From contig MTEI01000006.1 in NCBI GenBank assembly GCA_002083775.1, positions 62,321 to 126,320 of the forward strand: DNA of 64,000 nt, read 5' to 3'. This document shows, in pieces, positions 2,429-60,162 of the stretch. Within the stretch, counting starts at the first letter, position 1; the number at the start of each line of letters is the position of its first letter. Origin of the DNA: Rhodoferax ferrireducens. GTDB taxonomy: Bacteria > Pseudomonadota > Gammaproteobacteria > Burkholderiales > Burkholderiaceae_C. Both the position numbers and the translations under genes were made by a program. The notes below the pieces were generated by a model, which worked only from the letters and a program-made list of their open reading frames with translations, did no database searches and was not told the origin of the DNA.

Positions 2429-2433
2429 GTTAT

Positions 2434-3714: not shown

Positions 3715-3737
3715 ATGGCCAGTGCTATATCAAAAAG

Positions 3738-3770
3738 AGCTATCAGCCCTTATGGGACAAGGGCTAGAGC
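3738..3770. repeat. AT-rich palindromic repeat, copy B (covers the last codons and stop of the SLT gene)
   Basis: agctatcagcccttatgggacaagggctagagc has stem agccctt/aagggct. The stop codon of the minus-strand CDS (3750-3752) sits in the loop. Confidence 0.75.
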
Positions 3771-4688
3771 CTGTTTTGGCTTATAAGTAGACTGCGGCTT
3801 GAGGTTTTTCATGACCAGCGACGGCGAGCTGACTTTGCCCTCAAACGGATGGTGCGAGCCGCCAAAGGCGCGTAGCACCCGTTTGACATAGTTGCGTGTT
3901 TCCAGATACGGCGGCACACCTTTGTAGCGGTCCACGGTGCCCTCACCGGCGTTGTAGGCGGCCGCCACCAGCGCCACATCGCCCTCAAAATACGCCAGCA
4001 ACCAGCGCAGATAGGTCAGCCCGCCGCGAATGTTCTGCGCCGGATCAAAGGCGTTTTTGACGTTGAAACGCGCGCTGGTTTCCGGAATGAGCTGCATCAG
4101 GCCCTGGGCGTTTTTGGGCGACACGGCCTGCGGGTTGAAGTTGGACTCGGCGGCAATGATGGCCAGCGCCAGTTGCGGCGCCACCTGGAAACGCGGTGCC
4201 ATCTGGCCCACCAGCTTGAAGATGCTTTTGGGTGCGATCAGGCTGTAGTCCACCGGCGTCCAGGTCGCCATCTGAAGCTCCACGGGTAGCGGCTCGGGCT
4301 CGCGCATGCAGTCAGGCATGTCGGGCAGCACGTCGGCGAATTTGTCAGCCAGACGCCTGGCCGTCTCGATGCCCTGCTCAGCTGCGGCCTGAAACAGGTA
4401 GGCCGCCCGGCCGTCGTGGCGTGGCACACCGCGGCCGTTGGCGTACATCCAGCCCAGGTTGTACTGCGCGTCACGGTCGCCCTGCCGCGCTGCTTCGCAA
4501 TACAAATTGGCCGCCAGCAGCGGGTCGCGCCGCACGCCCTCGCCGTTTTCATAGGCCAGCGCTTGCGCAAACAGGCTGGCCTGCGCCGCGCCCCCCGGGG
4601 CGTTGTCCTGCGCCAAACACGCTGGCGCACACAGTGCACCCGCTAGCAGCGGCAAGCAGAAGGATCGAAGCAGGGACGTTGACAACAT
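3750..4688 (-). CDS. Lytic transglycosylase (SLT domain) with N-terminal Sel1-type repeats
   Basis: Signal peptide; Sel1-like segments YENGEGVRRDPLLAANLYCEAARQGDRDAQYNLGWMYANGRGV; SLT catalytic region AIIAAESNFNPQAVSPKNAQGLMQL...AAYNAGEG. Confidence 0.8.
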   Translation of the reverse strand: MLSTSLLRSFCLPLLAGALCAPACLAQDNAPGGAAQASLFAQALAYENGEGVRRDPLLAANLYCEAARQGDRDAQYNLGWMYANGRGVPRHDGRAAYLFQAAAEQGIETARRLADKFADVLPDMPDCMREPEPLPVELQMATWTPVDYSLIAPKSIFKLVGQMAPRFQVAPQLALAIIAAESNFNPQAVSPKNAQGLMQLIPETSARFNVKNAFDPAQNIRGGLTYLRWLLAYFEGDVALVAAAYNAGEGTVDRYKGVPPYLETRNYVKRVLRAFGGSHHPFEGKVSSPSLVMKNLKPQSTYKPKQALALVP

Positions 4689-4825: not shown

Positions 4826-5914
4826 TCAGCGCAACTTTTTGCCCAGCCAATGCTTGAGCCAGGCCATCAGGCCAGCGGGCGTACGCCAGTTAAAAGCGAC
4901 CAGGCCCCAGCGCTCGCGCCGGTGCGACATCCAGTCACGCTTGTAGGCGTCGTCACCTGTGAGGTAGTCCACCTCGTGCACCTGATCGATGTCCAACACG
5001 TGCTGCATCAACTTGGCTGTGAGCACCGAGCCCGCTGAAAAGCGTCCAAACCCTTCCACATAGGCCAGCTTGAAAATATTGGCTTTACCACCTTGAACCA
5101 GCCACAGCTGCGCGGCGATGGCCTGACCGTCAAGCTTGAGCACACCCAGGCGCAGCCAGCCCTGCACTGCGGCCATGCGCGCCAACGCCGGGATGAACTG
5201 ACGGTTGGGCTCAGGACCTTTCCAGCTTTTTTGGTAGACCGCGACAAAGTCGCCAATGGCGGCCTCCAGACTCGCGTCAGGCTGTTGCTGAATGTCCACT
5301 TGCCACGCACCCTGGCGCGTCAACCGGCGCTGGCCGCGTTCAATGCTGTGTCGCAACGCGGAAGGCAGGCCTTGAAAATAGTCAGCAAACGGTCGCCCTG
5401 CCACCTGCAGGTACCAGTTGCCAAAACAAAAGTAGCGGTCCACCGCGTAACCCGCCTGGCGCAAAGCCGCCTGAAAGCCGTCAAAAAATGTGGTTTGCGG
5501 ATCCATCGGGTCCAACATCAGCACCGGCCAGCGCTTGGGGTGCTGCCATAGAGCCTGGGCCAGCGCCTTCCAGTGTGCTGCACCCGGCTGCACAACAACG
5601 CCTTCACTCGCTGCCTGCCAGACCATGGGCATATACAGGCTGCTGTAGTAATTGCTCAGGCCGGTAAGCTTGGGGCCCGAGAGCAGCGGCAGGCACACCA
5701 CCGGGCCGCTGCGCCAGTCTCCCGCCTGCCACAGCTGGCAAACTGCTTCGCTCTGGCTCGCAGCATCCAGCCCAAACGCGGCCAAATTCTCAAACCAGGC
5801 CAAGGTGCCAAAGACATCAGTGGGTGCCATGCTGGGCGGCACGGTGCCCTGCTGGTCAAGCAGCGCCTGCAAACTGGCAAAGTTGTCCAGAATCTGGATG
5901 GCGGGTAGGCTCAC
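4826..5914 (-). CDS. GNAT-fold acyltransferase (Acetyltransf_6/CelD/FemAB-like), probably the PEP-CTERM-system-associated FemAB-related protein
   Basis: C-terminal half ...WLRLGVLKLDGQAIAAQLWLVQGGKANIFKLAYVEGFGRFSAGSVLTAKLMQHVLD...VDYLTGDDAYKRDW is typical of this family. Its position in an exosortase A locus supports the call. Confidence 0.6.
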   Translation of the reverse strand: MSLPAIQILDNFASLQALLDQQGTVPPSMAPTDVFGTLAWFENLAAFGLDAASQSEAVCQLWQAGDWRSGPVVCLPLLSGPKLTGLSNYYSSLYMPMVWQAASEGVVVQPGAAHWKALAQALWQHPKRWPVLMLDPMDPQTTFFDGFQAALRQAGYAVDRYFCFGNWYLQVAGRPFADYFQGLPSALRHSIERGQRRLTRQGAWQVDIQQQPDASLEAAIGDFVAVYQKSWKGPEPNRQFIPALARMAAVQGWLRLGVLKLDGQAIAAQLWLVQGGKANIFKLAYVEGFGRFSAGSVLTAKLMQHVLDIDQVHEVDYLTGDDAYKRDWMSHRRERWGLVAFNWRTPAGLMAWLKHWLGKKLR

Positions 5915-11026: not shown

Positions 11027-11064
11027 TCCCCTTTCAAGCGCCGAGGTGATTGATTGAGTCCGCC

Positions 11065-13038
11065 ATGACAGCCAAAGGCCATGCATCGGCCTGGCTGGTC
11101 GCTGCAGTCTGCCTGGTGGCGGGGCTGGCGATGGCTGGGCATCATCCTGTGGCGCCCCTTCTGGGCTTGGCGCTGGTGTGCCTGTCCTGCTGCCTGACCG
11201 CCTGGCAGCCCAGGCTTTGGCTTTGGCTGGTGCCTGCCTGCTTGCCCTGGCTGAACTTTTCGCCTTGGACCGGTTGGTTGGTTTTTGAAGAATTTGACAT
11301 CCTGCTGCTGGGCACGCTGGCCGGGGGCTACGCCCGTCTGGCCTGGGAAGCCCGACACGGCGGTGTGCGCTCGCCGCCTTCCCGCACGGCAACGGGGCTG
11401 ATCACGCTGGTGCTGCTGTCAGCCGGGCTGGCCTTGTGGCGGGGGTTTGCTGATGCAGGTGGCCTGCGTTTTAACTGGTTTGCCAATTACAGTGACGCCC
11501 TCAACAGCTGGCGTATCTTCAAGAGCCTGGGCCTGGCTGCCCTGTTCATTCCCTTGCTTGGCCGCGAGGTGCACCAGGCCCGGCAACGCGCGCCAGCCCT
11601 TTTAGCCTGGGGTGTCATCAGCGGTTTGGCGCTGGTGGTGCTGTCCACCTTGTGGGAACGCGCCGCCTTCCCGGGTCTGCTGGATTTTTCAGCGCCCTAC
11701 CGCACGGTGGCGCTATTTTGGGAAATGCACGTCGGTGGCGCGGCCATCGACGCCTATCTGGCCCTGACTGCACCGTTTGTGGTGTGGGCGCTGCATGCCA
11801 CGCGACGCCCAGCCTTGTGGGCGGCACTGGCTGTGCTGGCCGTTTTGGTGGGCTATACCTGCCTGACCACTTTCGCCCGCGGGGTTTACCTGGCGGTGGT
11901 CGCCCCATTGATGTTGCTGGCCTTTTTTCTGTGGTTGCAAAACCACGCGCGCCACGGCCGCAGCGCCTGGCAAGGCCTGCAGCACCAGCGCGGCGCGCCC
12001 GGCTGGCGGCTTAAAGCCAGCGTGCTGCTGTCGGTCACCCTGGTGCTGGAAGTGGTCGGCGTACTGGAAGGCGGCACCTTCATGCAGGAACGCATGGCCA
12101 GCGCCGAACAAGACCTGTCCAGCCGGGTGGAACACTGGAAAAACGGCGTTGGCCTGCTCGACGGCCCGGCAGACTGGCTACTGGGCAAGGGTCTGGGGCG
12201 CCTGCCTGCCAACTACGCTGCCCAGGTGCCGGGCGAAGAGTTTCCCGGTGACGCCAGGCACCAGATGGCGCCCGGGAAGCAGATCGTCGAGCAGTTTGTC
12301 ACGCTTTACGGCCCCAAAAGCCAACCCGAACTGGGGGGTGTTTTTGAATTGACGCAGCGCGTTGCTTTGACGGAGCCTGGGGGTTACCGGGTGCAGATGG
12401 ATGTCCGGGTCAGCGAAGAAACCCGTTTTGAGCTGTATCTGTGCGAGCGGCACCTGTTGTATGACCGGGCTTGCCAGGCGGCGTTTGTGCGCGTCAAACC
12501 CGCCGGGGGCGTTGGCCCCTTGGCCTGGCAGCCCCTGAACTTGGCCCTGCATGGCGACGCCCTGGGGCGCGGCAGCTGGTTCGCACCGCGGCTGAAAATG
12601 TTTTCTATCTCGGTGGTCGATGCCGCAAGTCGTGCCGATGTGGACAACATCCGCTTGACCAGCCCACGCGGGCAGCCGGTCTTGGCCAATGGCGATTTTT
12701 CTGCCGGCCTGTCACATTGGTTCCCCGCAGCGCAGTCCTATTTTGTGCCCTGGCATCTGGACAACCTGTTTCTGGAAATCTTGGTGGAGCGCGGCGCGGT
12801 AGGCTTGCTGGCATGGTTACTGCTGGTGAGTTATGCGCTGTGGCATTTGGTCCTGGGGCGCGCCAGACTGGTACCGCTGGCGCCTTATCTGGCAGCGTCG
12901 CTGATGGCGGTGCTGGTGGTGGGGCTGGTGAGCAGCGTGATGGATGTGCCGCGCGTGGCGTTCCTTTTTTTCATGCTTATATTCCTCTCGATTGAATGCA
13001 CAAGGACAAGCGCAACTGCGCAAGCCAAGCCACTTTGA
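11065..13038 (+). CDS. O-antigen ligase/Wzy_C-like polytopic membrane protein (probable exosortase A-associated O-glycosylation ligase) with a large inserted soluble domain
   Basis: Multiple TM helices, with a ...GKGLGRL ... HLDNLFLEILVERGAVGLLAWLL Wzy_C-type signature. A ~190-aa non-membrane insert separates the two motif halves. Start taken at ATG 11065. Confidence 0.65.
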   Translation: MTAKGHASAWLVAAVCLVAGLAMAGHHPVAPLLGLALVCLSCCLTAWQPRLWLWLVPACLPWLNFSPWTGWLVFEEFDILLLGTLAGGYARLAWEARHGGVRSPPSRTATGLITLVLLSAGLALWRGFADAGGLRFNWFANYSDALNSWRIFKSLGLAALFIPLLGREVHQARQRAPALLAWGVISGLALVVLSTLWERAAFPGLLDFSAPYRTVALFWEMHVGGAAIDAYLALTAPFVVWALHATRRPALWAALAVLAVLVGYTCLTTFARGVYLAVVAPLMLLAFFLWLQNHARHGRSAWQGLQHQRGAPGWRLKASVLLSVTLVLEVVGVLEGGTFMQERMASAEQDLSSRVEHWKNGVGLLDGPADWLLGKGLGRLPANYAAQVPGEEFPGDARHQMAPGKQIVEQFVTLYGPKSQPELGGVFELTQRVALTEPGGYRVQMDVRVSEETRFELYLCERHLLYDRACQAAFVRVKPAGGVGPLAWQPLNLALHGDALGRGSWFAPRLKMFSISVVDAASRADVDNIRLTSPRGQPVLANGDFSAGLSHWFPAAQSYFVPWHLDNLFLEILVERGAVGLLAWLLLVSYALWHLVLGRARLVPLAPYLAASLMAVLVVGLVSSVMDVPRVAFLFFMLIFLSIECTRTSATAQAKPL

Positions 13039-13092: not shown

Positions 13093-13659
13093 ATGAAAAT
13101 TACCGTGATTGGCACCGGCTACGTTGGCTTGGTGTCTGGGACTTGTCTGGCCGAGGTGGGTAACGATGTGTTGTGCCTGGATCTTGACCCCGCCAAGATC
13201 AAAATTCTGGAAGAAGGTGGCATCCCTATCTTCGAGCCTGGCTTGCAGGACATGGTCAAACGCAATGTGGCTGCCGGCCGGTTGCACTTCACCACAGATA
13301 TTGAGCGCGCCGCCCCTTTCGGCACCGTCCAGTTCATAGCGGTAGGCACGCCGCCAGACGAAGATGGCTCGGCCGACATGAAATACGTCACGGTTACAGC
13401 TTACGATCCGGTGGCCAGCACCGAGGCCAAACATTGTTTTCCCGATGAGCCCGCTTTGCGCTATGCCGACAACCAGAGCGCTGCTTTGGAAAATGCGGAT
13501 GCGCTGGTGATCGTCACTGAATGGAAGGAATTTCGCAGCCCGGACTTTGCCATGCTCAAGACCCGTCTCAAGGCACCGGTCATTTTTGATGGTCGTAACT
13601 TGTACGACCCAAAAATGGTTCACGACCTGGGTTTTGAGTATTCAGCGATTGGTCGTTAG
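13093..13659 (+). pseudogene. ugd: UDP-glucose 6-dehydrogenase remnant with an in-frame internal deletion (N-terminal ~97 aa fused to C-terminal ~90 aa)
   Basis: N-terminus [26 protein letters not shown]...[19 protein letters not shown] runs directly into VTAYDPVA...[18 protein letters not shown]...[12 protein letters not shown]...GFEYSAIGR. Total length is 188 aa versus ~440-470 aa for intact enzymes. The central/catalytic-Cys region is absent. Confidence 0.8.
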
Positions 13660-15115: not shown

Positions 15116-17227
15116 ATGAACAGCGGCAACCTGGATTTGACCGCCTGGAGCGGTGGCCTGGCTGGGTTTTTTTACGCTGTATTTGCGCTGCGTCTGCTGC
15201 AGGCCGGGTACCTCCAGCGCCCACGCGAAGCCTCCAAAATAGCGGTGCTGGCCGCCGTGGCGCTGAGCGCCTTGTGGGGCGTAGCCTCCCTGATGCTGGT
15301 GCTTAACCCATCGCCCGCAACTTGGCTACTGACCACGCTGGCAGACCAGTTGCGTTACGCCGCTTGGTTCGCATTTTTGCTGACGCTGCTGCGCACCAAT
15401 CGCCCTGCCAAGGGCATGAGCGGTACCAGCAGCTTGTTGATCTGGGCCGTGATGCTGGCGGCCGCGGGTCCACTGGCGCTGGGTCTGGCCGTGCTGGATG
15501 TAGGCGCTCTGGGTGACCCGGCGCGCTGGATTTTGTTCAGTGCCATGGCCATGCCGGTGTTTGCGCTGGTACTGCTGGAACAAGTGTTTCGCAACGCCAC
15601 CGAAGATTCGCGCTGGAACATCAAGCCCTTGTCGCTTGGTCTGGCTGGGGCGTTCCTGTTTGATTTGTACCTGTTTTCACAAGCCGTCCTGTTCAACCGC
15701 CCGGATGACGATGCGTTGAGTATTCGCGGCGGGGTGCACGCACTGATGATGCCGCTGCTGCTGCTGTCGAGCACCCGGCGCAGCGACTGGATTGCCAAGA
15801 TTCAGCTCTCGCCCAAGGCGGCGTTCCACTCGGCCACGCTGCTGATGGCGGGCATTTACCTGATTTTTATCTCGGGCGTAGGTTATTACGTGCGCTACTT
15901 TGGGGGAGAGTGGGGGCGTGCGCTGCAGCTGGGGCTGGTGGTGTTTGCCCTGATTCTGCTGGTGATATTGGCGCTCTCGGGCACCATCCGCGCGAAGCTG
16001 CGCATTTTCCTGGGCAAACATTTTTTCCGTTACCGTTATGACTACCGCGAAGAGTGGCTCAAGTTCACCCGCGCCCTCTCAGCCCAAAATTCCCCCCAAG
16101 CGCTGGGTCAGCAAGTGGTGCGCGGCCTGGCCGAAATGGTGGAAAGCCCCGGCGGCGGCTTGTGGTTGCGCGTCAAAGGCGAGCCCGCCTTCACCCAGAC
16201 CGCGCGCTGGAACATCGGGCAGGCAGATGACAAAGAAGCCATCGACTCGCCCATGTGCCAATACCTGGCCGATGGCGGCAAGCTGATCAATCTGGAAGAC
16301 TACCGGTCATTTTCCCGGCGCTACGGCTCGCTCAAGATTCCGGTCTGGCTGCAGGAACTCCCCCAAGCATGGCTGGTGGTGCCGTTGATGGTGGGCAGCG
16401 AACTGATCGGTTTTATGGTGCTAGCCAGCGCACGCACACCGTTTGAAGTGAACTGGGAGGTCAATGATCTGCTCAAAACCGCCAGCCAGCAGGCGGCCAG
16501 CTACCTGGCACAAATGCAGGCCACCGAGGCCTTGCTGGAAGTGCGCAAGTTTGACGCCTTCAACAAGATGTCGGCGTTTGTAGTGCATGACCTGAAAAAC
16601 ATCGTCACCCAGCTCTCGCTGATGATGAAAAACGCCAAACGACTCAGCGGTAACCCCGAGTTTCAGCAGGACATGCTGATGACGGTTGAAAACTCATTGG
16701 AGCGCATGCGCCAGCTGATGCTGCAACTGCGCGAGGGTGCCACCCCGCCGGGCAAGGCATTTGGTGTCAACTTGAGCGCCATCATCACGCGGGTGCAAGC
16801 GGTGGCTGCTGCACGCGGGCGCACCCTGGAAGTCGAGGCCGTTGAGTCGATCAACGCGCGCGGGCATGAAGAGCGTCTGGAGCGCATCATTGGCCACGTG
16901 GTGCAAAATGCTTTTGATGCCACCGACCCTAGTGGGCACGTATGGCTCTGGCTGGAGCGAGCTGGCGGCCAAGCCCGCATTGTGGTGAAAGACACGGGCC
17001 AGGGCATGACGCAGGACTTCATCCGGGAGCGGCTTTTCAAGCCTTTTCAGACCACCAAGCAGGCGGGTATGGGTATTGGTGCGTATGAAAGTTATCAGTA
17101 TGTGCAGGAATTAGGTGGCAAGATTGAGGTTCAGAGCGAAGTCAACCAAGGAACCACTGTGACGCTGTTGTTGCCGTTGTTTGAAACCCAGAAGACCTCC
17201 GATCTTCATTCCGTGGAAAGTGCATGA
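15116..17227 (+). CDS. prsK: XrtA/PEP-CTERM system histidine kinase PrsK
   Basis: ~8 N-terminal TM helices, a GAF-like middle region, H-box FVVHDLKNIVTQLSL, and ATPase motifs (VVQNAFDAT, KDTGQGM, GMGIGAYE). It is followed with a 4-nt overlap by a sigma-54 activator and a TPR lipoprotein. Confidence 0.85.
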   Translation: MNSGNLDLTAWSGGLAGFFYAVFALRLLQAGYLQRPREASKIAVLAAVALSALWGVASLMLVLNPSPATWLLTTLADQLRYAAWFAFLLTLLRTNRPAKGMSGTSSLLIWAVMLAAAGPLALGLAVLDVGALGDPARWILFSAMAMPVFALVLLEQVFRNATEDSRWNIKPLSLGLAGAFLFDLYLFSQAVLFNRPDDDALSIRGGVHALMMPLLLLSSTRRSDWIAKIQLSPKAAFHSATLLMAGIYLIFISGVGYYVRYFGGEWGRALQLGLVVFALILLVILALSGTIRAKLRIFLGKHFFRYRYDYREEWLKFTRALSAQNSPQALGQQVVRGLAEMVESPGGGLWLRVKGEPAFTQTARWNIGQADDKEAIDSPMCQYLADGGKLINLEDYRSFSRRYGSLKIPVWLQELPQAWLVVPLMVGSELIGFMVLASARTPFEVNWEVNDLLKTASQQAASYLAQMQATEALLEVRKFDAFNKMSAFVVHDLKNIVTQLSLMMKNAKRLSGNPEFQQDMLMTVENSLERMRQLMLQLREGATPPGKAFGVNLSAIITRVQAVAAARGRTLEVEAVESINARGHEERLERIIGHVVQNAFDATDPSGHVWLWLERAGGQARIVVKDTGQGMTQDFIRERLFKPFQTTKQAGMGIGAYESYQYVQELGGKIEVQSEVNQGTTVTLLLPLFETQKTSDLHSVESA

Positions 17228-18582
17228 CCTCAGAAAAATCTCGCCCATTGATGATCGTTGAAGACGATCTGGCGCTGCAAAAGCAGATCAAGTGGTCACT
17301 GGACCGCTTTGAGACGGTCACCGCCAGCGACCGCGAGAGTGCGCTGCTGCAGTTGCGCAAGAGCCTGCCTGCCGTGGTGACGATGGACCTGGGCCTGCCG
17401 CCCGATGCAGATTCGGTGTCGGAAGGCTTCAAGCTGCTGGAACAGATCATGGCGTTTGACCCCGACATCAAGGTCATCGTACTCACCGGCCAGAACGACC
17501 AGACCAACGCCCTGCGCGCCGTCGCCATGGGCGCTTATGATTTTTTTGCCAAGCCGTTTGAGCCGGAGTTGCTGAACCTGACGGTGGAGCGCGCTTTCCG
17601 GCTGTTTGAACTACAGGCTGAAAACAAGCGCCTGCGCGCCCTGCACCAGCCCGACGCGCTGGCTGGCCTAACCACCCGCGACCCGATGATGATGCGCATC
17701 TGCCGCACCATCGAAAAAGTGGCCAGCAGCAACGCCACCATCATGCTGCTGGGTGAAAGTGGCACCGGCAAGGAAGTGCTGGCGCGCGGATTGCACCAGA
17801 CCTCACCGCGGCGGGCCGAGAAGTTTGTGGCCATCAACTGCGCCGCCATCCCCGAAAACCTGCTGGAAAGCGAACTCTTTGGCTACGAGAAAGGCGCTTT
17901 TACCGGCGCTGCCAAGACCACGTTGGGCAAGATCGAGACGGCCAATGGCGGCACCTTGATGCTGGATGAAATTGGCGATTTGCCCTTTCAGTTACAGGCC
18001 AAGCTGCTACGTTTTTTGCAGGAACGCACCATTGAGCGCGTGGGTGGCCGGCAAGAGATCGCGGTGGATGTGCGCATCATCTGCGCCACGCATCAAGACC
18101 TGATGGCATTGGCCAAGGAAAACAAGTTTCGCGAAGACCTGTATTACCGGCTGGCCGAAATTGTGGTCAACATCCCTCCGCTGCGCGAGCGCGTGGGCGA
18201 CTCAGCCTTGCTGGCGCACGCCTTTGCGCGCAGGTTTGCCCAGGAGCAAAACCGCAGCTCCCTGACGCTGAGCGACGATGCGGTCAAGGCCATTGAGCAG
18301 CACACCTGGCCCGGCAACATCCGCGAGCTGGAAAACTGCATCAAACGCGCCGTGATCATGGCCGATGGCAACCAGATCACCCGTGAAGATGTGGGCCTGC
18401 GCCCCGCCAGCGACGCGCTCGACACGTCGCTGGACTTGCGCGTGATCCGTGACAACGCTGAAAAAACCGCTATTCTGGCGGCTCTTGGCCGGGTCAATGG
18501 CAATGTACTCAAGGCCGCCGAGTTGCTTGGCGTGAGCCGCCCCACGCTGTACGATTTGATGCACCGGCTCGGGTTGAAATAG
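17224..18582 (+). CDS. prsR: PEP-CTERM-box response regulator PrsR (REC + sigma-54 AAA+ activator + HTH)
   Basis: REC domain (VVTMDLGLPPD). AAA+ motifs GESGTGKE, ESELFGYEKGAFTGA and RVGG. C-terminal Fis-type HTH AAELLGVSRPTLYDLM. Confidence 0.9.
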   Translation: MTSEKSRPLMIVEDDLALQKQIKWSLDRFETVTASDRESALLQLRKSLPAVVTMDLGLPPDADSVSEGFKLLEQIMAFDPDIKVIVLTGQNDQTNALRAVAMGAYDFFAKPFEPELLNLTVERAFRLFELQAENKRLRALHQPDALAGLTTRDPMMMRICRTIEKVASSNATIMLLGESGTGKEVLARGLHQTSPRRAEKFVAINCAAIPENLLESELFGYEKGAFTGAAKTTLGKIETANGGTLMLDEIGDLPFQLQAKLLRFLQERTIERVGGRQEIAVDVRIICATHQDLMALAKENKFREDLYYRLAEIVVNIPPLRERVGDSALLAHAFARRFAQEQNRSSLTLSDDAVKAIEQHTWPGNIRELENCIKRAVIMADGNQITREDVGLRPASDALDTSLDLRVIRDNAEKTAILAALGRVNGNVLKAAELLGVSRPTLYDLMHRLGLK

Positions 18583-18619
18583 GTCCGTCTTTCCAATAAG
18601 TTCCATTCAGGGGTTGATC

Positions 18620-21394
18620 ATGTCTTTCAAAAAATATCCAACGCGCGCGGCACTGTCTGCACTGCTGATGTCTTTGCTGCTGGTAGCCTGTGGCGACAAG
18701 CCCGAGGCCATGATCAGCTCTGCCAAAGACTATCTGGCCAAAAATGACAGCAAGGCGGCCGTCATCCAGATCAAGAACGCGCTGCAAAAAAACCCCGACA
18801 TGCCCGAAGCCCGCTATCTGCTGGGCAAAACGCTGCTGGACCAGGGTGATGCCGTAGGGGCTGAGACCGAGCTACGCAAGGCCTTGGCGCTCAACTACCC
18901 AGCAGACCCCGTCTTGCCGCTGCTGGCCAATGCGCTGCTGGCGCAGGGTCAGGCCAAGAAACTCACTGAAGAGTTTGGCAAAGTCACCCTGACCGACCAA
19001 ACCGCCCAAGGCGGCTTTTTGACCAGCCTGGCAACGGCCTACGCGGCACAGGGCCAGACAGAACCAGCGCAAGCGTCACTTGATGCTGCATTGGCCGCCA
19101 CACCAGACTACGCGCCAGCCAAGCTGATTCAGGCGCGCCAAAAAGGGGGCCAGCGCGACTTTGACGGTGCGCTGGCGCTGGCTGAAGAGATCATTGCCAA
19201 GACACCAGACAGCTTCGATGCCTGGAAGCTCAAGGGTGACCTGCTGCGCTACGCCAAAAATCAGCCCACTGAGGCGCTAGCGGCCTACCGCAAGTCGGTA
19301 GAGATCAAGCCAGACTTTATGGCGGGCCAGGCCGCCGTGGTCACCTTGTTGCTGCAACAAAACAACCTGACCGATGCGGCCAGCCAGATGGAGCAGCTGA
19401 AAAAAGTCGCCCCCAACCATCCGCAAACCAAATTCCTTCAAGCCAATCTGGCCTACCAGCAAAAAGACCTGAAGTCTGCGCGCGAGCTGGTTCAGGAGGT
19501 CATGAAAGCAGCACCCAACAACGTGCAGGGTTTGCAGTTGGCTGGCGCCATTGAGCTGCAGCTCAACGCCCCGGTGCAGGCTGAAGCCTATTTGAGCAAG
19601 GCATTGCAAGCCGCGCCAGGCCTGCCGCTGGCCCGGCGCTTGCTGGTCATGACGTATTTGCGTACTGGTCAGCCCGACAAAGCCCTGGCCACCCTGAAAC
19701 CCGGCCTGACCGGCGACAACATCGACCCCGGCCTCTACCCTGTGGCGGGTGAGGTCTATCTGCAAAACAATGACGTCAAAAAGGCGGAAGAATATTTCAC
19801 CAAGGCATCCCAGCAAGACCCCAAAAACGCCAGAAACCGCACATCATTGGCGTTGACGCACATGATCGGCGGGCGTGTGGACAGCGCCTTTGATGAGCTG
19901 CAAGACATCGCCGCCTCAGACACTGGCACCACTGCCGACATGGCCTTGATCAGCGCCCATCTGCGCCGCCAAGACCTGGACAAAGCCCTGAAAGCCATTG
20001 ACGGCCTAGAGAAAAAACAGCCTGACAAACCCCTGGCCGCCAACCTGCGCGGGCGCGTGCTGCTGGCCAAGCGTGACGTGGCGGGCGCACGCAAGAGCTT
20101 TGAGCGTGCCTTGCAGATTGACCCGATGTTTTTCCCGGCGGTAGCCAGCCTGGCCGGGCTGGACCTGGCCGACAAAAAACCGCAGGATGCCAAAGCCCGC
20201 TTTGACGCCGTGCTGGCCAAAGACCCCAAAAATGCCCAGGCCCTGCTGGCGCAAGCCGAGTTGGCCGCCCGCTCTGGCGCCACCAAGGAAGAAGTGGGCA
20301 AACTGATCACCAACGCCGTCAGCGCCAACCCGACTGAAGCGGCGCCGCGCCTGCTGCTGATCGATTTCCACCTGCGCAACAAAGACCTGAAACAAGCCAC
20401 CTCTGCCGCGCAGGACGCGGTAGCCGCCCTGCCCGACAACCCGGAAGTGCTCGATGCACTCGGCCGTACCCAGCAAGCCGCAGGTGAATTTAACCAAGCC
20501 ATTGCCAGCTACAACAAGTTGGCTGGCATGCAACCCCTGTCCCCCCAGCCCTATTTGCGCCTGGCCGATGTGCACATGGCCAACAAAGACAAGACCGCTG
20601 CCGCTGCCAGCCTGCGCAAGGCGCTGGACATCAAACCCGACCTGCAGCAAGCCCAACGCGGCACCATCCTGCTGGACATGGACGGCAAAAACATCCCTGG
20701 CGCGCTTGCCACCGCCAAAACCATGCAAAAACAGGATCCAAAAGGTGCAGTGGGTTATGTGCTGGAAGGCGACATCAACGCCTCGCAAAAAAACTGGGAC
20801 GCAGCTGCCAGCGCCTACCGGACCGGCCTGAAGCAAGTCACCTCAGCTGAGTTGGCCGTCAAACTGCACTTGGTGTTGCAGGTGGCAGGCAAAACGGCAG
20901 AAGCCGAAAAATTTTCAGCTACCTGGCAACGCGAACAGCCCAAAGACGCCAGCTTTCTGCTGTACTTGGGTGACGGTGCCATTGCCAGCAAAGACTACGC
21001 TGGCGCCGAAAAACTTTACAGCCGGGTGACCCAGCTGCAGCCCGACAAAGCAGTTGCCTTTAACAACCTAGCCTGGGTCACTGCCCGACTGAACAAGGAT
21101 GGCGCTATCGCCCTGGCCGAAAAAGCCAACGCACTCGCCCCGAATCAACCGGCATTCATGGACACTCTGGCGGTGCTACTGTCAGACAAGGGCGAATACG
21201 CCAAAGCACTGGAGGTGCAAACCAAAGTGGTCAACCTGCAGCCGCAAAACCCGGTGTTCAAGCTGAACCTAGCCAAGATTCACATCAAGGGCGGCAAGAA
21301 GGACCTGGCCCGGGTGCAACTGGATGAGCTGAGCAAGCTGGGGGACAAGTTTGCGGGGCAGAAAGAGGTGACGGAGTTGATGCAGGGGTTGTGA
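18620..21394 (+). CDS. prsT: PEP-CTERM system TPR-repeat lipoprotein PrsT
   Basis: Lipobox LLLVAC at the N-terminus (start taken at ATG 18620). ~920 aa of consecutive TPR units. Synteny after prsK-prsR. Confidence 0.85.
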   Translation: MSFKKYPTRAALSALLMSLLLVACGDKPEAMISSAKDYLAKNDSKAAVIQIKNALQKNPDMPEARYLLGKTLLDQGDAVGAETELRKALALNYPADPVLPLLANALLAQGQAKKLTEEFGKVTLTDQTAQGGFLTSLATAYAAQGQTEPAQASLDAALAATPDYAPAKLIQARQKGGQRDFDGALALAEEIIAKTPDSFDAWKLKGDLLRYAKNQPTEALAAYRKSVEIKPDFMAGQAAVVTLLLQQNNLTDAASQMEQLKKVAPNHPQTKFLQANLAYQQKDLKSARELVQEVMKAAPNNVQGLQLAGAIELQLNAPVQAEAYLSKALQAAPGLPLARRLLVMTYLRTGQPDKALATLKPGLTGDNIDPGLYPVAGEVYLQNNDVKKAEEYFTKASQQDPKNARNRTSLALTHMIGGRVDSAFDELQDIAASDTGTTADMALISAHLRRQDLDKALKAIDGLEKKQPDKPLAANLRGRVLLAKRDVAGARKSFERALQIDPMFFPAVASLAGLDLADKKPQDAKARFDAVLAKDPKNAQALLAQAELAARSGATKEEVGKLITNAVSANPTEAAPRLLLIDFHLRNKDLKQATSAAQDAVAALPDNPEVLDALGRTQQAAGEFNQAIASYNKLAGMQPLSPQPYLRLADVHMANKDKTAAAASLRKALDIKPDLQQAQRGTILLDMDGKNIPGALATAKTMQKQDPKGAVGYVLEGDINASQKNWDAAASAYRTGLKQVTSAELAVKLHLVLQVAGKTAEAEKFSATWQREQPKDASFLLYLGDGAIASKDYAGAEKLYSRVTQLQPDKAVAFNNLAWVTARLNKDGAIALAEKANALAPNQPAFMDTLAVLLSDKGEYAKALEVQTKVVNLQPQNPVFKLNLAKIHIKGGKKDLARVQLDELSKLGDKFAGQKEVTELMQGL

Positions 21395-21477
21395 GGCTGT
21401 CGATTTTTTTTACAATTTTGGTTTTTCTTCCTCGATTTGATGTGAAAAACCGATGCAAATCAGCAAGTTGTCCATAT

Positions 21478-21494
21478 CGGCACGAAAAGTGCTT
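21478..21494 (+). promoter_or_regulatory. Sigma-54 (-24/-12) promoter candidate upstream of the Tat-protein/PqqD/kinase/NTase cassette
   Basis: cGGCACGaaaagTGCtt matches TGGCACG-N4-TTGCW in GGCACG, spacing and TGC. It lies ~108 nt upstream of GTG 21601 and downstream of the sigma-54 activator gene prsR. Confidence 0.5.
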
Positions 21495-21600
21495 AGTCCA
21501 TCAGAAATCAGCGGTTGCTCGGCATACCTAGCGCCCAGTCCGATTTGAGGTTTTCTTTTTTGAATGAAGTCGCTTATATCGGCGATGCAAAGGAACGGAT

Positions 21601-22218
21601 GTGAGTGATAAAAATTCCCAAATCGATGAGAAAATTTCTGTGAAAGAAAAGCTTTCACCACCCTCGTTAGAGCGTCGCCGTGCTCTTTTTAGAGGTGCAG
21701 GAAAAGGGGCTGCCGTCTTAGGGGCAGTCGTGCCGTTGCATACATTGGCAGGCGAAACTCTGCTGACATTTGATGGCAAACACCATTGCAGTATTTCTGG
21801 CATGCATTCCGGCGTCCACTCTAAAACGCCCACCAATTCACCCGTGTGCGGGGGCTACAGCCCAGGTTGGTGGGGGCAAGTTGAGAACGGAAGCAATCCA
21901 CCAGCGCCGAGAAGAACCTGGCCAGCTCTTCCAGGTGGTCTAACTTACAACTCGCCGACAATAGACACCTTTTCAAAACATACGCTAGCAAACAATCCAA
22001 CACTGTTTCAGGTGATGGCTAGCTCGTTGCCAGGCACGAACTATTCAAGCACCGATGAATTTCACTGGATTTGTGCTTGGTTAAACGCGCTCTCCAATAG
22101 TTTTAACTTTCCCTATACAGGCGACCAAGTGTTGGGTTTCTATCGGTCGGCAATTCCTGGTGTTTACGATGACGCCTTGAAATTCTTCAGTGACTATATG
22201 GAGACACACACTCCTTGA
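21601..22218 (+). CDS. Hypothetical secreted protein with a twin-arginine (Tat) signal; family not recognised
   Basis: GTG start 5 nt after AAGGAA. SLERRRALFRGAGKGAAVLGAVVPLHTLA|GE is a Tat-type signal. The mature part carries HHCSISGMHSGVHS, CGGYSPGWWGQ and WICAWLNA. Low-GC codon usage. Confidence 0.55.
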   Translation: MSDKNSQIDEKISVKEKLSPPSLERRRALFRGAGKGAAVLGAVVPLHTLAGETLLTFDGKHHCSISGMHSGVHSKTPTNSPVCGGYSPGWWGQVENGSNPPAPRRTWPALPGGLTYNSPTIDTFSKHTLANNPTLFQVMASSLPGTNYSSTDEFHWICAWLNALSNSFNFPYTGDQVLGFYRSAIPGVYDDALKFFSDYMETHTP

Positions 22219-22272
22219 AGCAGCTAGGGCCTAGGGGTTACTGATGCCCCAGAGAATCAACTTCTTGTTCGC

Positions 22273-22551
22273 ATGTTGTGGCGGCTGAACTCACTCGTCA
22301 AGCTCAGTTGGCGGCATTGGCAAAATGAATGGGTGGTTTTTGATGCGGGGTCAGGTCATACCCACCAGATGGATGCCCTTACGGCGGCCACCTTGATGAC
22401 GGTCGAAGCAGGGGAACTGGAAATGTCGGAACTGGTTACCCAAGTCTCTCAGACCGTGTCCATCGAGTTAAATCCAGAACTTGCCCTTACTGTCCAGGAA
22501 ATCCTTGGCCGATTGGTGGCAGTGGGTTTGGTTACTTCGACCTGCGAATGA
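22273..22551 (+). CDS. PqqD-family protein (RiPP-recognition-element-like; HPr-rel-A system type)
   Basis: 92 aa. W..W....VVFDAGSGHTHQMDALTAATLM...ELVTQV...VQEILGRLVAVGLV follows the PqqD pattern. Confidence 0.75.
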   Translation: MLWRLNSLVKLSWRHWQNEWVVFDAGSGHTHQMDALTAATLMTVEAGELEMSELVTQVSQTVSIELNPELALTVQEILGRLVAVGLVTSTCE

Positions 22552-23465
22552 CATTGTCAGAATTGAGCTTGGCTGAAGTCAAGTCCAGGCTTTGCGGTAC
22601 TGGCCTCGTCATTCGCACCGGGTCCTTCATCTTTCGTATTCAGTCCCGTATCCCATCTATAGCAGACGGTTTAGCGTTGCTCTATCCGGAATACCCGTTG
22701 TTAGCCGACGATCAATTTGTTGACTTTACTGTCGCCTTGTCACCAAGTGCTGGCATACGGCGATGGTGGCGGTCTCAAGTAAGGTTCGTGTATGACGGGG
22801 AAAGTCCCTTTGCCATGCTGCCGATTGACCATGCCTTTCCACTGATGGAATGGGCTATGAACTGGTGCATCTCTACCCAAGCCCACCACTACTTGACGCT
22901 ACACGCAGCTGTGATCGAGAAGGGTGGGCATGCCGTGATCATGCCAGCACCGCCCGGCTCTGGAAAGAGCACCTTGTGTGCTGCCTTGATCCATCGGGGC
23001 TGGCGTTTGCTGTCCGACGAGTTGGCGCTGATCTCACTCACCAACGGTATGCTCACACCCTTGGTCCGGCCGGTTAGTTTGAAAAACCAGTCGCTTCAGG
23101 TGATACAGACATTTGCCCCGGAATCGATCTTGAATCAGGTTACACACGACACATCCAAAGGCTCAGTCAGCCACATGAAGGTCCCCGTGAACCACGTGCG
23201 ACGCATGAACGAGTTTGCAAAACCCCGTTGGGTCGTTTTCCCGAAATACCTGTCAAATGCGCCTGCACGGCTGAGCTCCCGACCCAAAGCCAACAGCATG
23301 CTGGAATTGGGGCGTAATTCATTCAATTACACGGTTCATGGGCAAACGGGCTTTGAACTCCTTGCGGATGTGGTCTCCAACAGCGATTGTTATGACTTCA
23401 GTTACAGCCAGTTGGATGACGCTGTCGCGGTATTCGACGACCTCGCCGCTAACGCAGTGTCATGA
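22548..23465 (+). CDS. HprK-related kinase A (HPr-kinase-like P-loop serine kinase)
   Basis: 4-nt overlap with the PqqD-like gene. LHAAVIEKGGHAVIMPAPPGSGKSTLCAALIHRGWRLLSDELALI is an HPr kinase C-terminal-type P-loop region. Confidence 0.8.
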   Translation: MTLSELSLAEVKSRLCGTGLVIRTGSFIFRIQSRIPSIADGLALLYPEYPLLADDQFVDFTVALSPSAGIRRWWRSQVRFVYDGESPFAMLPIDHAFPLMEWAMNWCISTQAHHYLTLHAAVIEKGGHAVIMPAPPGSGKSTLCAALIHRGWRLLSDELALISLTNGMLTPLVRPVSLKNQSLQVIQTFAPESILNQVTHDTSKGSVSHMKVPVNHVRRMNEFAKPRWVVFPKYLSNAPARLSSRPKANSMLELGRNSFNYTVHGQTGFELLADVVSNSDCYDFSYSQLDDAVAVFDDLAANAVS

Positions 23466-24553
23466 CGCAAGACCTTTTGTCCAGAATTTGGGCGCATGAG
23501 AATTCACAACCTCTCTTCACGCTTAGGGAGTGGGAAGTGGTGCTTGGGCAGGCGCGCCAAGCACGGCTGCTGGGTCGCTTGGCCCAGCACCATGTCGATC
23601 ACGGTTGGATGTCACATGTGCCTGAACAGCCCAAGCTCTACCTTGAAGGCGCTCTGCGGCTGCTGGACCGACAGCATTACGAAGTGCAATGGGAAGTCAA
23701 CTGCATTGAACGCGCTCTGGAACGGGTTTCTTGCCCCGTCGTGATGCTTAAGGGTGCGGCTTATTTTGTGGCTGCATTGCCGCCCCGCCTGGGTCGACTC
23801 TTTTCGGATGTTGACATCATGGTGCCGCAGACGTTCCTGCCGCAAGTGGAAGGGGCCTTGTTTAGGGCAGGCTGGCTCAGCAACGAGCAAGATGCCTACA
23901 ACCAACGCTATTACCGCGTTTGGATGCACGAGATCCCGCCCCTGAAGCACGTCCAGCGCCAAACCGTGATTGATGTCCACCACACCATCACGCCGCCGAC
24001 GTCGCGCTTCAAGGTCGACGGCAGGATGCTTTTGGAAAAAATTCAATCTGTTGCCGGTTCTGAGCTGCTCTTCGTTCTGTCGCCTGCCGACATGGTGTTG
24101 CACAGCGCTGTCCACTTGTTCCAAGAAGGAGAGTTTGAACGAGGTCTGCGCGATCTGCTAGACCTCAAAGACTTGTTACAGCACTTTTCCAGGCAATCAG
24201 ATTTCTGGCTGTCACTGTTTGACCGGGCAGACCAACTTGGCCTGCAAATTCCGTTGTTTCATGCGTTATTTCACATCCAGCGCTTGTTTAGCTATGCGGC
24301 ACCGGAAAAATTCCAAAAACGCATCGCGCACCTTGCACCACCTGCTCCCGCGCGGGTGGTGATGGCGTGGCTTCTTGAACTGGCGTTGCGGCCTGCGCAC
24401 CCAAGCTGCAACACCCGCTGGACGGGTCTGGCGCGCTGGCTCTTGTATGTCCGATCACACGCATTGCGAATGCCTATGCATCTGGCGATACCGCATTTGA
24501 TTCGTAAGGCCTGGATGCAGCGTTTCCCAAATCCGAAAGAAACTCAGCCTTAG
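23462..24553 (+). CDS. Uncharacterised nucleotidyltransferase (NTP_transf_5-like)
   Basis: 4-nt overlap with the kinase gene. VMLKGAAYFVAALPPRLGRLFSDVDIMVP...VIDVHHTITPP matches the family's G-x...SDxD and H-H motifs. Confidence 0.7.
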   Translation: MTQDLLSRIWAHENSQPLFTLREWEVVLGQARQARLLGRLAQHHVDHGWMSHVPEQPKLYLEGALRLLDRQHYEVQWEVNCIERALERVSCPVVMLKGAAYFVAALPPRLGRLFSDVDIMVPQTFLPQVEGALFRAGWLSNEQDAYNQRYYRVWMHEIPPLKHVQRQTVIDVHHTITPPTSRFKVDGRMLLEKIQSVAGSELLFVLSPADMVLHSAVHLFQEGEFERGLRDLLDLKDLLQHFSRQSDFWLSLFDRADQLGLQIPLFHALFHIQRLFSYAAPEKFQKRIAHLAPPAPARVVMAWLLELALRPAHPSCNTRWTGLARWLLYVRSHALRMPMHLAIPHLIRKAWMQRFPNPKETQP

Positions 24554-24655
24554 GTTCACGACCAAACGGCATTTTTTACAAACGCCTCAGGCGCGCTGAT
24601 GCCTGCGATCACCCTTCTCCGTCCCGCATCCCCCACAGCCGATAATCCCGCCCCT

Positions 24656-59956: not shown

Positions 59957-60162
59957 AGTGCGCACTCTTTTCTTAATGCCAACGTCATCAAAACCGCCAC
60001 CAGACCAAAACCGGAGCATGGTAGTTGACAAAACACTGACCGGCTCTTTTGCATAGCAAAATCAAATGCGTTTTTGTAGACAAGTTGGCAATTCGGTCAC
60101 CGGCGGGCAGCATCGCTGCCCTGGCAAGCGGGTTATCGCTTACCCGTAGTCACCCCGTTTTC

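Follow-up and report, generated by a model that had tools for sequence, protein, structure and literature searches.

A four-gene HPr-rel-A cassette behind prsKRT in Rhodoferax ferrireducens and the proposed RiPP-like modification of its Tat-leader partner protein

In lasso peptide biosynthesis, the kinases PadeK, ThcoK and PsmK phosphorylate a serine of the leader-bearing precursor before the leader is removed, and PsmN adds one or more hexoses to the phosphate (PMC6993621, PMC9266682). It was left open whether PsmN is a true nucleotidyltransferase (NTase) that is followed by a host glycosyltransferase (PMC6993621, PMC9266682). The catalytic motif of the lasso kinases is H-K-D-D (PMC9266682). 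Here, we describe a cassette of four genes at positions 21601-24553 (forward strand) of a 64-kb stretch of the Rhodoferax ferrireducens contig MTEI01000006.1, which was analysed as a whole and is called the window in the following. The cassette encodes a partner protein that we call ORF205, a PqqD-like protein, a kinase related to HPr kinase (HprK) and an NTase. The enzyme trio is named in databases as the HPr-rel-A system and occurs in thousands of environmental and wastewater Proteobacteria, yet it is absent from the searchable literature. An earlier reading of the same DNA (the original prediction) had stated that no substrate or function is described for this system, which agrees with the literature that can be searched, and had correctly named HPr-kinase-like and NTase enzymes as tailoring enzymes of lasso peptides (PMC6993621, PMC9266682).

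The second described system that is close to this locus is the PEP-CTERM regulon. A bipartite element was found 5' of proteobacterial PEP-CTERM genes; it consists of a 17-nt motif 1 that ends in TTTACA, a spacer of 62.8 +/- 10.6 nt (range 32-92 nt) and a sigma-54 motif (motif 2, GG-N10-GC) that lies about 71 nt (23-221) from the start codon, the whole being intergenic (Haft 2006, PMC1569441). The phylogenetic profile of the element matches that of PrsK, PrsR and PrsT (PMC1569441). For pepA of Aquincola, which has the same cis-architecture, dependence on RpoN was shown experimentally (PMC9850573). Considering both systems together, we think that the cassette is probably a PrsR/sigma-54-dependent four-gene operon of the XrtA/PEP-CTERM regulon, in which a RiPP recognition element (RRE), the kinase and the NTase would modify a partner protein with a twin-arginine translocation (Tat) leader, in a manner that resembles RiPPs (peptides that are made on ribosomes and then modified after translation).

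Four conserved genes and the families of their enzymes

The first gene of the cassette starts with GTG and encodes ORF205 (21601-22218, 205 aa). It is followed by the genes of the PqqD-like protein (22273-22551, 92 aa), the HprK-related kinase A (22548-23465, 305 aa) and the PF14907 NTase (23462-24553, 363 aa), all on the forward strand. The gap between the stop codon of prsT (21394) and ORF205 measures 206 nt and that between ORF205 and the PqqD-like gene 54 nt, whereas the last three genes are joined by two 4-nt overlaps that both read ATGA. The positions, shared direction and overlaps given in the original prediction are exact, and the features it had named are present, namely the twin-arginine signal of ORF205 (RRRALFR), the P-loop of the kinase (PAPPGSGKST) and the NTase motif (FSDVDIMV).

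All three enzymes are members of their families above the curated cut-offs. The 92-aa protein matches TIGR04353 (PqqD_rel_X) with 46.8 bits against a cut-off of 35, over positions 1-74 of the 74-position profile. Its family is named 'HPr-rel-A system PqqD family peptide chaperone' in NCBIfam, and this membership of the PqqD/RRE family implies a peptide ligand. The kinase matches TIGR04352 (HprK_rel_A) with 395.1 bits against 200 (profile positions 2-280 of 280) and also belongs to Pfam PF27840 'ScmC', and the NTase matches PF14907 (NTP_transf_5) with 166 bits against 31.2. The original prediction had named these three models together with the generic Pfam models PqqD and Hpr_kinase_C; the first three assignments stand, whereas both generic models remained below threshold for the cassette proteins. 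Similarly, the models of HPr kinase/phosphorylase fail on the kinase (TIGR00679, 20.4 bits against 240; PF07475, 18.1 against 33.3), with the P-loop region alone matching.

The catalytic residues of both enzymes are conserved. In family alignments of the kinase, four residues are invariant: H119 (within 22896-22913), K140 in the P-loop PAPPGSGKST (aa 133-142, 22944-22973), and D157 and E158 (within 23010-23021). The NTase carries the Pol-beta-type motif FSDVDIMV (aa 114-121, 23801-23824), and the motif G98...D116-x-D118 is invariant in its family. The AlphaFold2 (AF2) model of the NTase has a predicted local distance difference test score (pLDDT) of 89, and its nearest folds in a Foldseek search are ANT(2'')-Ia (5cfs, 4xje), LnuA, MenT and CCA-adding enzymes, all of them weak matches (E-values of 4e-3 to 0.08). 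A sequence search of the PDB returned no match for the NTase and, for the kinase, weak matches to the HprK structures 1jb1 and 1ko7 over residues 117-176, which cover only the P-loop. On inspection by eye, no signal peptide was seen in the three enzyme sequences; modification should thus precede export.

To survey the cassette across genomes, we searched GTDB with a kinase profile, taking a single genome for each species, which returned at least 539 relatives, and analysed the best 80 loci. These have 49-73% identity and stem almost all from Burkholderiales and Nitrosomonadales, with a few Gammaproteobacteria. In every one of the 80 genome loci, the NTase gene adjoins the kinase gene on its 3' side; directly 5' of the kinase gene, the loci examined invariably have the PqqD-like gene. 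With an iterated profile, a homologue of ORF205 was detected directly 5' of the PqqD-like gene wherever upstream DNA is available, which is the case for 75 loci. The original prediction had proposed to survey neighbourhoods for a conserved partner gene, and the ORF205 homologue, present in 75/75 loci, is such a partner. At one locus (L033, 8680-9751), the homologue appears to be split over two to three frames, which may reflect a frameshift, a pseudogene or an assembly error.

The gene order is retained far beyond these genomes. A profile search of 1.84 billion representative proteins yielded 526 kinase clusters at 50% identity (E<=1e-30). As a distant set, we used the contexts of distant representatives, which have about 33-54% identity to the window kinase, and of 80 metagenomic loci that were fetched with a distant-kinase profile. 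This set retains the order partner-PqqD-kinase-NTase with a changing partner, and the same four-gene order occurs in more than 130 loci from many taxa. Among the best 150 representatives, there are nine kinase-NTase fusions and two PqqD-kinase fusions, and such natural fusions argue for a physically coupled enzyme set. The kinase-NTase fusions are 687-722 aa long (P0216, P0217, P0223, P0236, P0239, P0250, P0268, P0295 and P0297) and the PqqD-kinase fusions 434 and 388 aa (P0215 and P0288).

Several loci depart from the common arrangement. Two diverged partner genes stand in tandem before one PqqD-kinase-NTase set in L145 (2200-2859 and 3058-3651) and L163 (2236-2874 and 3066-3647). The partner gene lies 3' of the enzymes in L082 (5888-6592) and L123 (2914-3582); L082 also has a PqqD-kinase fusion and lacks an exopolysaccharide (EPS) context, its neighbours being hemA, prfA and prmC. 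In L087 (282-7535), a 229-aa partner with a Tat leader and a kinase occur together while the NTase is absent, and the genes that follow encode an NAD-dependent sugar epimerase, a NUDIX hydrolase, a 5'-nucleotidase and a Wzx-type flippase. The gene content of this variant hints at sugar-nucleotide chemistry.

Partner proteins and their leader

ORF205 has no match in NCBIfam or Pfam. The same applies to 22 diverse partners, none of which is recognised by any NCBIfam or Pfam model; only sub-threshold echoes of Tat-signal-bearing proteins were seen. The shared element of the family is a Tat-type leader rather than a mature domain, which the original prediction had missed. In ORF205, the leader comprises aa 1-51 (21601-21753): after an n-region that is long and polar come the twin-arginine motif RRRALFR (aa 25-31, 21673-21693), an uncharged h-region and the conserved sequence P-L-H-T-L-A-G (HTLAG at 21739-21753). 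The Tat-type region reads E-RRR-ALFR-GAGKGAAVLGAVVPLHTLA, that is, a motif like S/T-R-R-x-F-L-K, an uncharged h-region and a c-region of the A-x-A type. R25 and R26 are conserved at 96-98%, and T48 is invariant in alignment A2 and conserved in at least 90% across 22 unrelated partners. Further conserved positions of ORF205 are P45, T48-L49-A50, G67, W107-P108 and H155-W-I-C-A-W-L-N.

The leader of ORF205 is followed by a segment rich in cysteine and serine, C63-S-I-S66-G-M-H-S70-G-V-H-S74...C83-G-G-Y-S-P-G-W-W-G-Q (21787-21879), which contains candidate modification sites. Over 165 sequences, S66 is conserved at 99%, S70 and S74 at 100%, C63 at 95% and C83 at 90%, and the consensus of the ORF205 type across the family is C-x-[ST]-P-S-G-F-x-S-G-N-x-S...C-x-G-x-x-P-G-Y-W. 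In the AF2 model, residues from about 80 to 200 form a confident, mostly helical part (pLDDT above 90), whereas the leader is disordered and residues 66-74 have a pLDDT below 50, which suggests that they are flexible. As invariant serines in a segment that is predicted to be disordered, S66, S70 and S74 are likely candidates for the modification site. A Foldseek search with ORF205 found no fold relative in the PDB (best E-value 4), and the fold offers no hint of a function. The protein ends in ...FFSDYMETHTP and shows no PEP-CTERM signal (PEP motif, transmembrane segment and basic cluster; TIGR02595 was not matched). Thus, without this sorting signal, ORF205 is not a predicted exosortase substrate.

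Partners elsewhere are diverse in everything but the leader. Their total length is 60-437 aa, and the mature parts of the distant partners, 14-388 aa long, fall into one large family of the ORF205 type and at least five unrelated families. The shortest partners (60-115 aa, among them peptides of 60-61 aa) consist essentially of a signal peptide and a tail rich in serine, glycine and threonine, for instance ...RRRLIKSSVAALPVVLTISAGTARA-HGSTGSGSR. Common to all partners is a long polar n-region, RR[RK]-[LF]-x-[KR] and then ...P-h-h-h-T-L-x-S-x-P-x-x-A-x-x-x-C. Among the distant loci with enough upstream DNA, a partner with this canonical leader is present in 49 of 55, and two more have the Rhodoferax-type variant. 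We built a hidden Markov model (HMM) of 42 positions from the leader only and applied it to 31,870 six-frame segments (1.85 Mb). It returned 92 matches (E<=0.01), all of which are partner genes, and coordinates place 83 of the 92 just 5' of a PqqD-like gene. In a logo of 87 unique leader sequences, the two arginines reach 0.98 and 0.99, T21 0.92, L22 0.84, S24 0.84 and C33 0.89. As we judge from this logo, the leader appears to be more conserved than a generic Tat signal.

Partners that are not of the ORF205 type have conserved Cys/Ser motifs of their own near the C-terminus, for example S-C-[LWVD]-x-S-[VFI] (SCLASV, SCWASF, SCWTSV, GCWSSV) and VAILS[ST]xSxxSL. They were seen in L090, L092, L096, L106, L098, L128, L164, L119, L087, L089, L112 and L113, and in L093, L099, L102, L127, L129 and L139. 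These motifs recall both the C-x-x-S of ORF205 (C63-S-I-S66) and the C-terminal serine that is the target of the lasso kinases.

The original prediction had reported that the cassette holds no cyclase, protease or short precursor gene. Scans with NCBIfam and Pfam over the four open reading frames (ORFs) of at least 60 aa indeed found no cyclase, no protease and no separate short precursor gene within the cassette. What was overlooked is that ORF205 would be the equivalent of the precursor or substrate, in which case the cassette does not truly lack a gene of this kind. Small ORFs in the 5' region (at 21391, 21453 and 21515), considered as hidden precursors, are conserved in no compared locus.

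Promoter and genomic neighbourhood

Upstream of ORF205, we found a PrsR-box, which corresponds to motif 1 of the PEP-CTERM cis-element (TGTCGATTTTTTTTACA, 21398-21414, +). This 17-mer ends in TTTACA and is the presumed PrsR binding site. A sigma-54-type -24/-12 element (CGGCACGAAAAGTGC / cGGCACgaaaagTGC, 21478-21492, +) follows 63 nt 3' of motif 1 and 108 nt 5' of the GTG, so that motif 1, the spacer, motif 2 and the distance to the start all agree with the definition of Haft 2006. It is the only strong bipartite match in the window. The sigma-54 consensus by itself is at chance level, with 144 two-mismatch matches in the window against about 150 expected. When loci are compared, sites with at least 9 of 10 consensus positions occur 5' of the partner gene in 20/73 loci, as opposed to 2.5% of random windows, and the position is orthologous in L001, L005, L007 and L011.

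The complete bipartite element (position weight matrix plus GG/GC, with motif 1 as TGTCGG-N5-TTTACA) is far more frequent than in random DNA. It was detected in 32/73 genome loci compared to 39/4000 random windows, and in 25/47 distant loci compared to 57/3000, where it precedes several partner families with spacers near 63, of 75-77, of 84-87 and of 92-96 nt. Of the 32 genome loci without any XrtA-locus gene within 10 kb, 18 have the element as well. The upstream PrsR-box and the conservation across loci are what make the sigma-54 site convincing: the promoter assigned in the original prediction is not significant alone but is supported in this combination, and the suggested control by PrsR gains support from a conserved PEP-CTERM box at the expected spacing. 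The description that suits the cassette best is thus membership of the PrsR/sigma-54 regulon, and its transcription would depend on PrsR. No convincing terminator or attenuator was found between ORF205 and the PqqD-like gene or 3' of the NTase gene.

The genes 5' of the cassette fit this regulon. They include prsK (15116-17227, +; TIGR02916, 822 bits), prsR (17224-18582, +; TIGR02915, 726 bits), whose product is the presumed activator of the cassette, and prsT (18614-21394, +; TIGR02917, 879 bits), all above cut-off, as are the other members of the exosortase-A-associated set (hydr2_PEP, hydr1_PEP, ligase_PEP_1, dCO2ase_PEP1 and EpsB_2). The genes on the 3' side are unrelated (Uup, DapB-like, ClC, MpaA, EF-G and others). 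In the proposed survey of neighbourhoods, genes of the XrtA/PEP-CTERM locus proved strongly enriched: when genes were clustered across the 80 genome loci, about 34-37 of the 69 loci with adequate flanks had an XrtA-system gene within 10 kb, compared to a proximity of about 1-2% estimated for random genes; a few of the PrsR matches in Thiobacillus are probably NtrC. Counted as XrtA genes were EpsB_2, PrsK/R/T, the chain-length determinant TIGR03007, the outer-membrane protein TIGR03016, the export protein TIGR03027, the tyrosine kinase TIGR03018, the ATPase TIGR03015, the deacetylase TIGR03006 and FemAB (TIGR03019). The order relative to the prs genes varies. The order of the window recurs in L001, L007, L011 and L030, while seven Sphaerotilaceae-like loci have prsK(-) epsB2(+) cassette ... 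prsR(-).

With respect to base composition, the drop over about 3.2 kb after the prsT stop that the original prediction had described was confirmed. The region 21395-24590 has 52.6% G+C compared to 61.7% in the remaining window, which is the minimum among 609 sliding 3.2-kb windows. Across loci, the difference between cassette and flanks averages -1.5%, and the cassette is lower in just 43/68 loci. We therefore rejected low G+C as proof of a recent transfer, for which it is a weak hint at most. The offset depends on the clade: it is 5-10% below the flanks in many Comamonadaceae and Sphaerotilaceae (L013-L028, L068) and 4-6% above them in Massilia and Duganella (L039, L044, L052, L064). Such offsets in either direction suggest that the module has been exchanged laterally between lineages.

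Some neighbours recur at other loci. One of them is a secreted S1/DegP-like serine protease, which measures about 265 aa and lacks a PDZ domain; it was found in 26/80 genome loci and 7/80 metagenomic loci, often directly 3' of the NTase gene. For instance, it lies about +1.9 to +2.1 kb from the kinase start in L004, L007, L011, L013, L014, L024, L027, L028, L030, L031 and L034, and the very distant locus L088 has it too (3093-3920). This protease could process the exported partner. The recurrent neighbours from elsewhere, including the S1 protease, the chain-length determinant and the export protein, are absent from the window. In about nine loci, GNAT-like proteins that match only the uncharacterised model PRK14852 are encoded near the cassette (L009, 6573-7910; L039, 15253-16014; and relatives), and an ORF of the window (4826-5914, -) has a weak GNAT (BspF-like) match.

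Other parts of the window are described for completeness. Of the UDP-glucose 6-dehydrogenase profiles, which have about 413-439 aa, the ORF 13093-13659 (+, 188 aa) matches only the N-terminal residues (about 100) and one further stretch. Located between epsB2 and the XrtA-associated genes, it is probably a ugd gene that is truncated or frameshifted. Three long ORFs in or beside the XrtA-associated block (1631-2428, 2386-3714 and 11050-13038, +) have no NCBIfam match at E<=1e-5. As xrtA was not found among the window ORFs tested, the exosortase gene probably lies outside the window. On the reverse strand, 52172-60031 encodes a 2,619-aa adhesin-like protein with DUF11 repeats, an isopeptide-forming fimbrial domain and SdrC/D-like repeats, and it is followed by an overlapping 1,115-aa ORF without a family match (48835-52182).

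Proposed mechanism, rival explanations and known systems

Going beyond the gene content, family membership, four-gene conservation, leader signature, fusions, promoter elements and neighbourhood enrichment that were observed directly, we infer that gene 1 encodes the substrate and that its leader is both the RRE ligand and the Tat signal; the chemistry, target residue and biological role would be as follows. ORF205 would be made as a pre-protein with a polar n-region, an RR motif, an h-region with the system-specific signature P-h-h-h-T-L, a signal-peptidase-like site, the Cys/Ser motif and a folded domain. The PqqD-like RRE would bind the leader and hold the substrate in the cytoplasm, as a Tat-signal chaperone does. 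It would then present the substrate to the HprK-related kinase, which could phosphorylate a serine or threonine (S66, S70 or S74, or the T-L-x-S of the leader), and the PF14907 NTase may turn the phosphomonoester into a phosphodiester with a nucleotide and/or a sugar, in parallel to PsmK and PsmN. The original prediction had suggested a PrsR-controlled module for phosphorylation, nucleotidylation or glycosylation with a tie to exosortase/EPS biology; our analysis supports this reading, and the modification itself may be any of the three. The modified, folded product would be exported via Tat, after which signal peptidase would cut off the leader, and it may act in the periplasm or matrix with the PEP-CTERM/EPS machinery. 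The Tat pathway carries folded cargo. That the product leaves the cytoplasm in its finished form would account for the conservation of a Tat signal instead of a Sec signal, and since Tat and signal peptidase would do the jobs of exporter and leader protease, the cassette would need no dedicated enzyme for either.

Several observations weigh against this model. The case for ORF205 as the substrate is made from synteny and leader conservation, and no paper on the system was found in the searchable literature. With its additional GxGKG, the leader of the window protein (RRRALFRGAGKGAAVLGAVVPLHTLAG) represents a subfamily variant, which the distant-leader HMM missed; it is tied to the canonical leader via full-length family homology and the aligned RR and T48. 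The curated TAT models stay below significance (TIGR01409 with E=0.079 for 1 of 22 partners, PF10518 without a match), so that Tat export is read from the sequence pattern alone. About half of the loci have neither the PrsR-box nor XrtA neighbours in the available DNA. The NTase model shares its ANT(2'')-Ia entries with those reported for PsmN, but these fold matches are weak. Furthermore, the most conserved leader residues (T, L and S) precede the presumed cleavage site, and a modification placed on them would go when the leader is cut off, a loss that the model does not account for.

A first alternative is another target. The enzymes might act on PEP-CTERM proteins, on an unannotated small peptide or on a sugar or lipid intermediate of EPS, with ORF205 as a co-regulated periplasmic accessory such as a binding protein, an enzyme or a matrix component. 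Synteny is no proof of an enzyme-substrate relation, the nearest folds of PF14907 modify hydroxyls of small molecules or RNA, and XrtA loci are polysaccharide loci. In addition, a glycosylation of PEP-CTERM proteins has been proposed (Haft 2006, PMC1569441), and L087 lacks the NTase and runs into sugar-nucleotide genes. We nevertheless consider this explanation unlikely, if worth keeping in mind, because the RRE/PqqD family implies a peptide ligand and because the leader is the sole feature common to unrelated partners, some of which are little more than a leader with a tail of 14-30 aa, which would be difficult to account for if the partner were an accessory protein. Moreover, no other conserved small ORF exists in the cassette, partner genes can occur in tandem, and many loci are far from EPS genes. 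A related explanation is the attachment of a prosthetic group or cofactor, which would be a sub-variant of our model: the partner would be an apo-protein or the precursor of a peptide-derived cofactor, the kinase and the NTase would place a phosphodiester-linked group on a conserved serine, as the holo-ACP synthases CitX and MdcG do, and the PqqD-like protein would be a Tat proofreading chaperone like TorD or NapD until the group is in place. Proteins that receive their cofactors in the cytoplasm typically carry Tat signals, and CitX and MdcG are established NTase-type enzymes that attach phosphodiester-linked groups to serine. Accordingly, the Tat-type signal of the partner, its invariant Ser/Cys residues and its confidently modelled domain without a PDB relative fit this idea. 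Mature tails of 14-34 aa without a folded domain, however, are a poor fit to a carrier apo-protein, the mature domains of different families are not related, and no cofactor-biosynthesis genes are conserved nearby, which makes it rather improbable.

Two further explanations were considered. The cassette could be the decayed remnant of a horizontally acquired lasso cluster, or an inert island beside prsT, as might be thought from its having the lowest G+C of the window, a lasso-like B1/K/N content without cyclase and protease, and a variable position relative to the prs genes. We regard this as very improbable, since the four ORFs are intact and translationally coupled, their order is kept in more than 130 loci down to about 33% kinase identity with invariant catalytic residues, the dedicated promoter is conserved and the lower G+C is not universal. 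The MenT toxin as the second-best Foldseek match of the NTase, and the occurrence of NTase-kinase combinations in defence systems, would suggest an anti-phage defence or toxin module around a MenT-like NTase. To this we give next to no credence: PADLOC reported nothing in the cassette beyond a noise-level P-loop hit, the synteny with EPS genes is stable, chromosomal and accompanied by a PrsR-box promoter, the enzymes are always paired with a secreted partner protein, and among the most recurrent gene clusters, which were annotated, no mobile-element or defence neighbour stood out.

Returning to the modification of the Tat-leader partner, we put forward, tentatively and as a doubtful rather than a favoured generalisation, that the system is a new RiPP-like class whose RRE leader is at the same time a twin-arginine signal peptide, where Tat and signal peptidase replace exporter and protease, and a kinase and an NTase install a serine phosphodiester on substrates of 60 aa to 400 aa. 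It is speculation that this phosphodiester is an activated NDP-Ser or a phospho-sugar that is used outside the cytoplasm, for example for a covalent link to the exopolysaccharide matrix of the XrtA/PEP-CTERM system; an ATP-independent periplasmic coupling via a phosphodiester-activated serine is an attractive speculation. If the model is true, the conserved fourth gene becomes the substrate of the system, with a leader that can be mined by the 42-position HMM without off-target matches. RRE-dependent chemistry would then extend from small peptides to Tat-exported proteins, a RiPP-like system without its own protease and exporter would be explained, and such a pathway would be widespread, in more than 500 GTDB species. 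The biology of the exosortase-associated matrix would gain a new, possibly phospho-linked, protein component, and the regulatory input would be PrsK/PrsR/sigma-54, a circuit that is needed for floc and biofilm formation in activated-sludge bacteria.

When comparing the cassette to known systems, the closest is the HPr-rel-A system of NCBIfam itself. The proteins of the window are members above the cut-offs and the PqqD-kinase-NTase order is the same, but the database gives names only, and substrate, regulation and function are described in no searchable paper. The fourth gene, the Tat-type leader signature of heterogeneous partners, the fusions and the PrsR-box promoter appear to be undescribed; neither the model libraries nor the papers searched contained the fourth gene, its leader signature or the promoter. 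The lasso tailoring set (B1, PadeK/ThcoK/PsmK and PsmN) comprises the same three protein types as the cassette, and the H-K-D-D of the lasso kinases corresponds to H119-K140-D157-E158 of the window kinase. Lasso clusters also encode an Asn-synthetase-like macrolactam synthetase (C), a transglutaminase-like B2 protease and an ABC exporter, none of which is present in the cassette. Furthermore, a lasso precursor is short, with a lasso leader and a C-terminal serine, whereas ORF205 has 205 aa, a Tat-type signal, conserved serines that are internal and the end ...METHTP, and the system of the window is found under PrsR/sigma-54 in Proteobacteria with XrtA.

The PEP-CTERM genes of the PrsK/PrsR/sigma-54 regulon (Haft 2006; pepA of Aquincola) resemble ORF205 in their cis-architecture, long 5' region, secreted and serine-rich product and adjacency to prs/XrtA genes. 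ORF205 differs in that it has a Tat-type signal in place of the PEP-CTERM signal and is followed by three co-transcribed modification enzymes. With HPr kinase/phosphorylase, the window kinase has the P-loop and the following acidic motif in common, whereas its N-terminal domain is different and no HPr or phosphotransferase system context exists. Redox enzyme maturation proteins (REMPs) such as TorD, DmsD and NapD are small cytoplasmic proteins that bind the cognate twin-arginine signal until maturation is complete. The PqqD/RRE fold is unrelated to those of TorD and NapD, and the maturation proposed here is a covalent modification of serine rather than the insertion of a redox cofactor. Lastly, with regard to generic RiPP pathways, an RRE and a conserved, position-specific leader signature are present, the binding of this leader by the RRE and the modification by the clustered enzymes would follow the RiPP scheme, and many of the partners are full-size proteins and not peptides.

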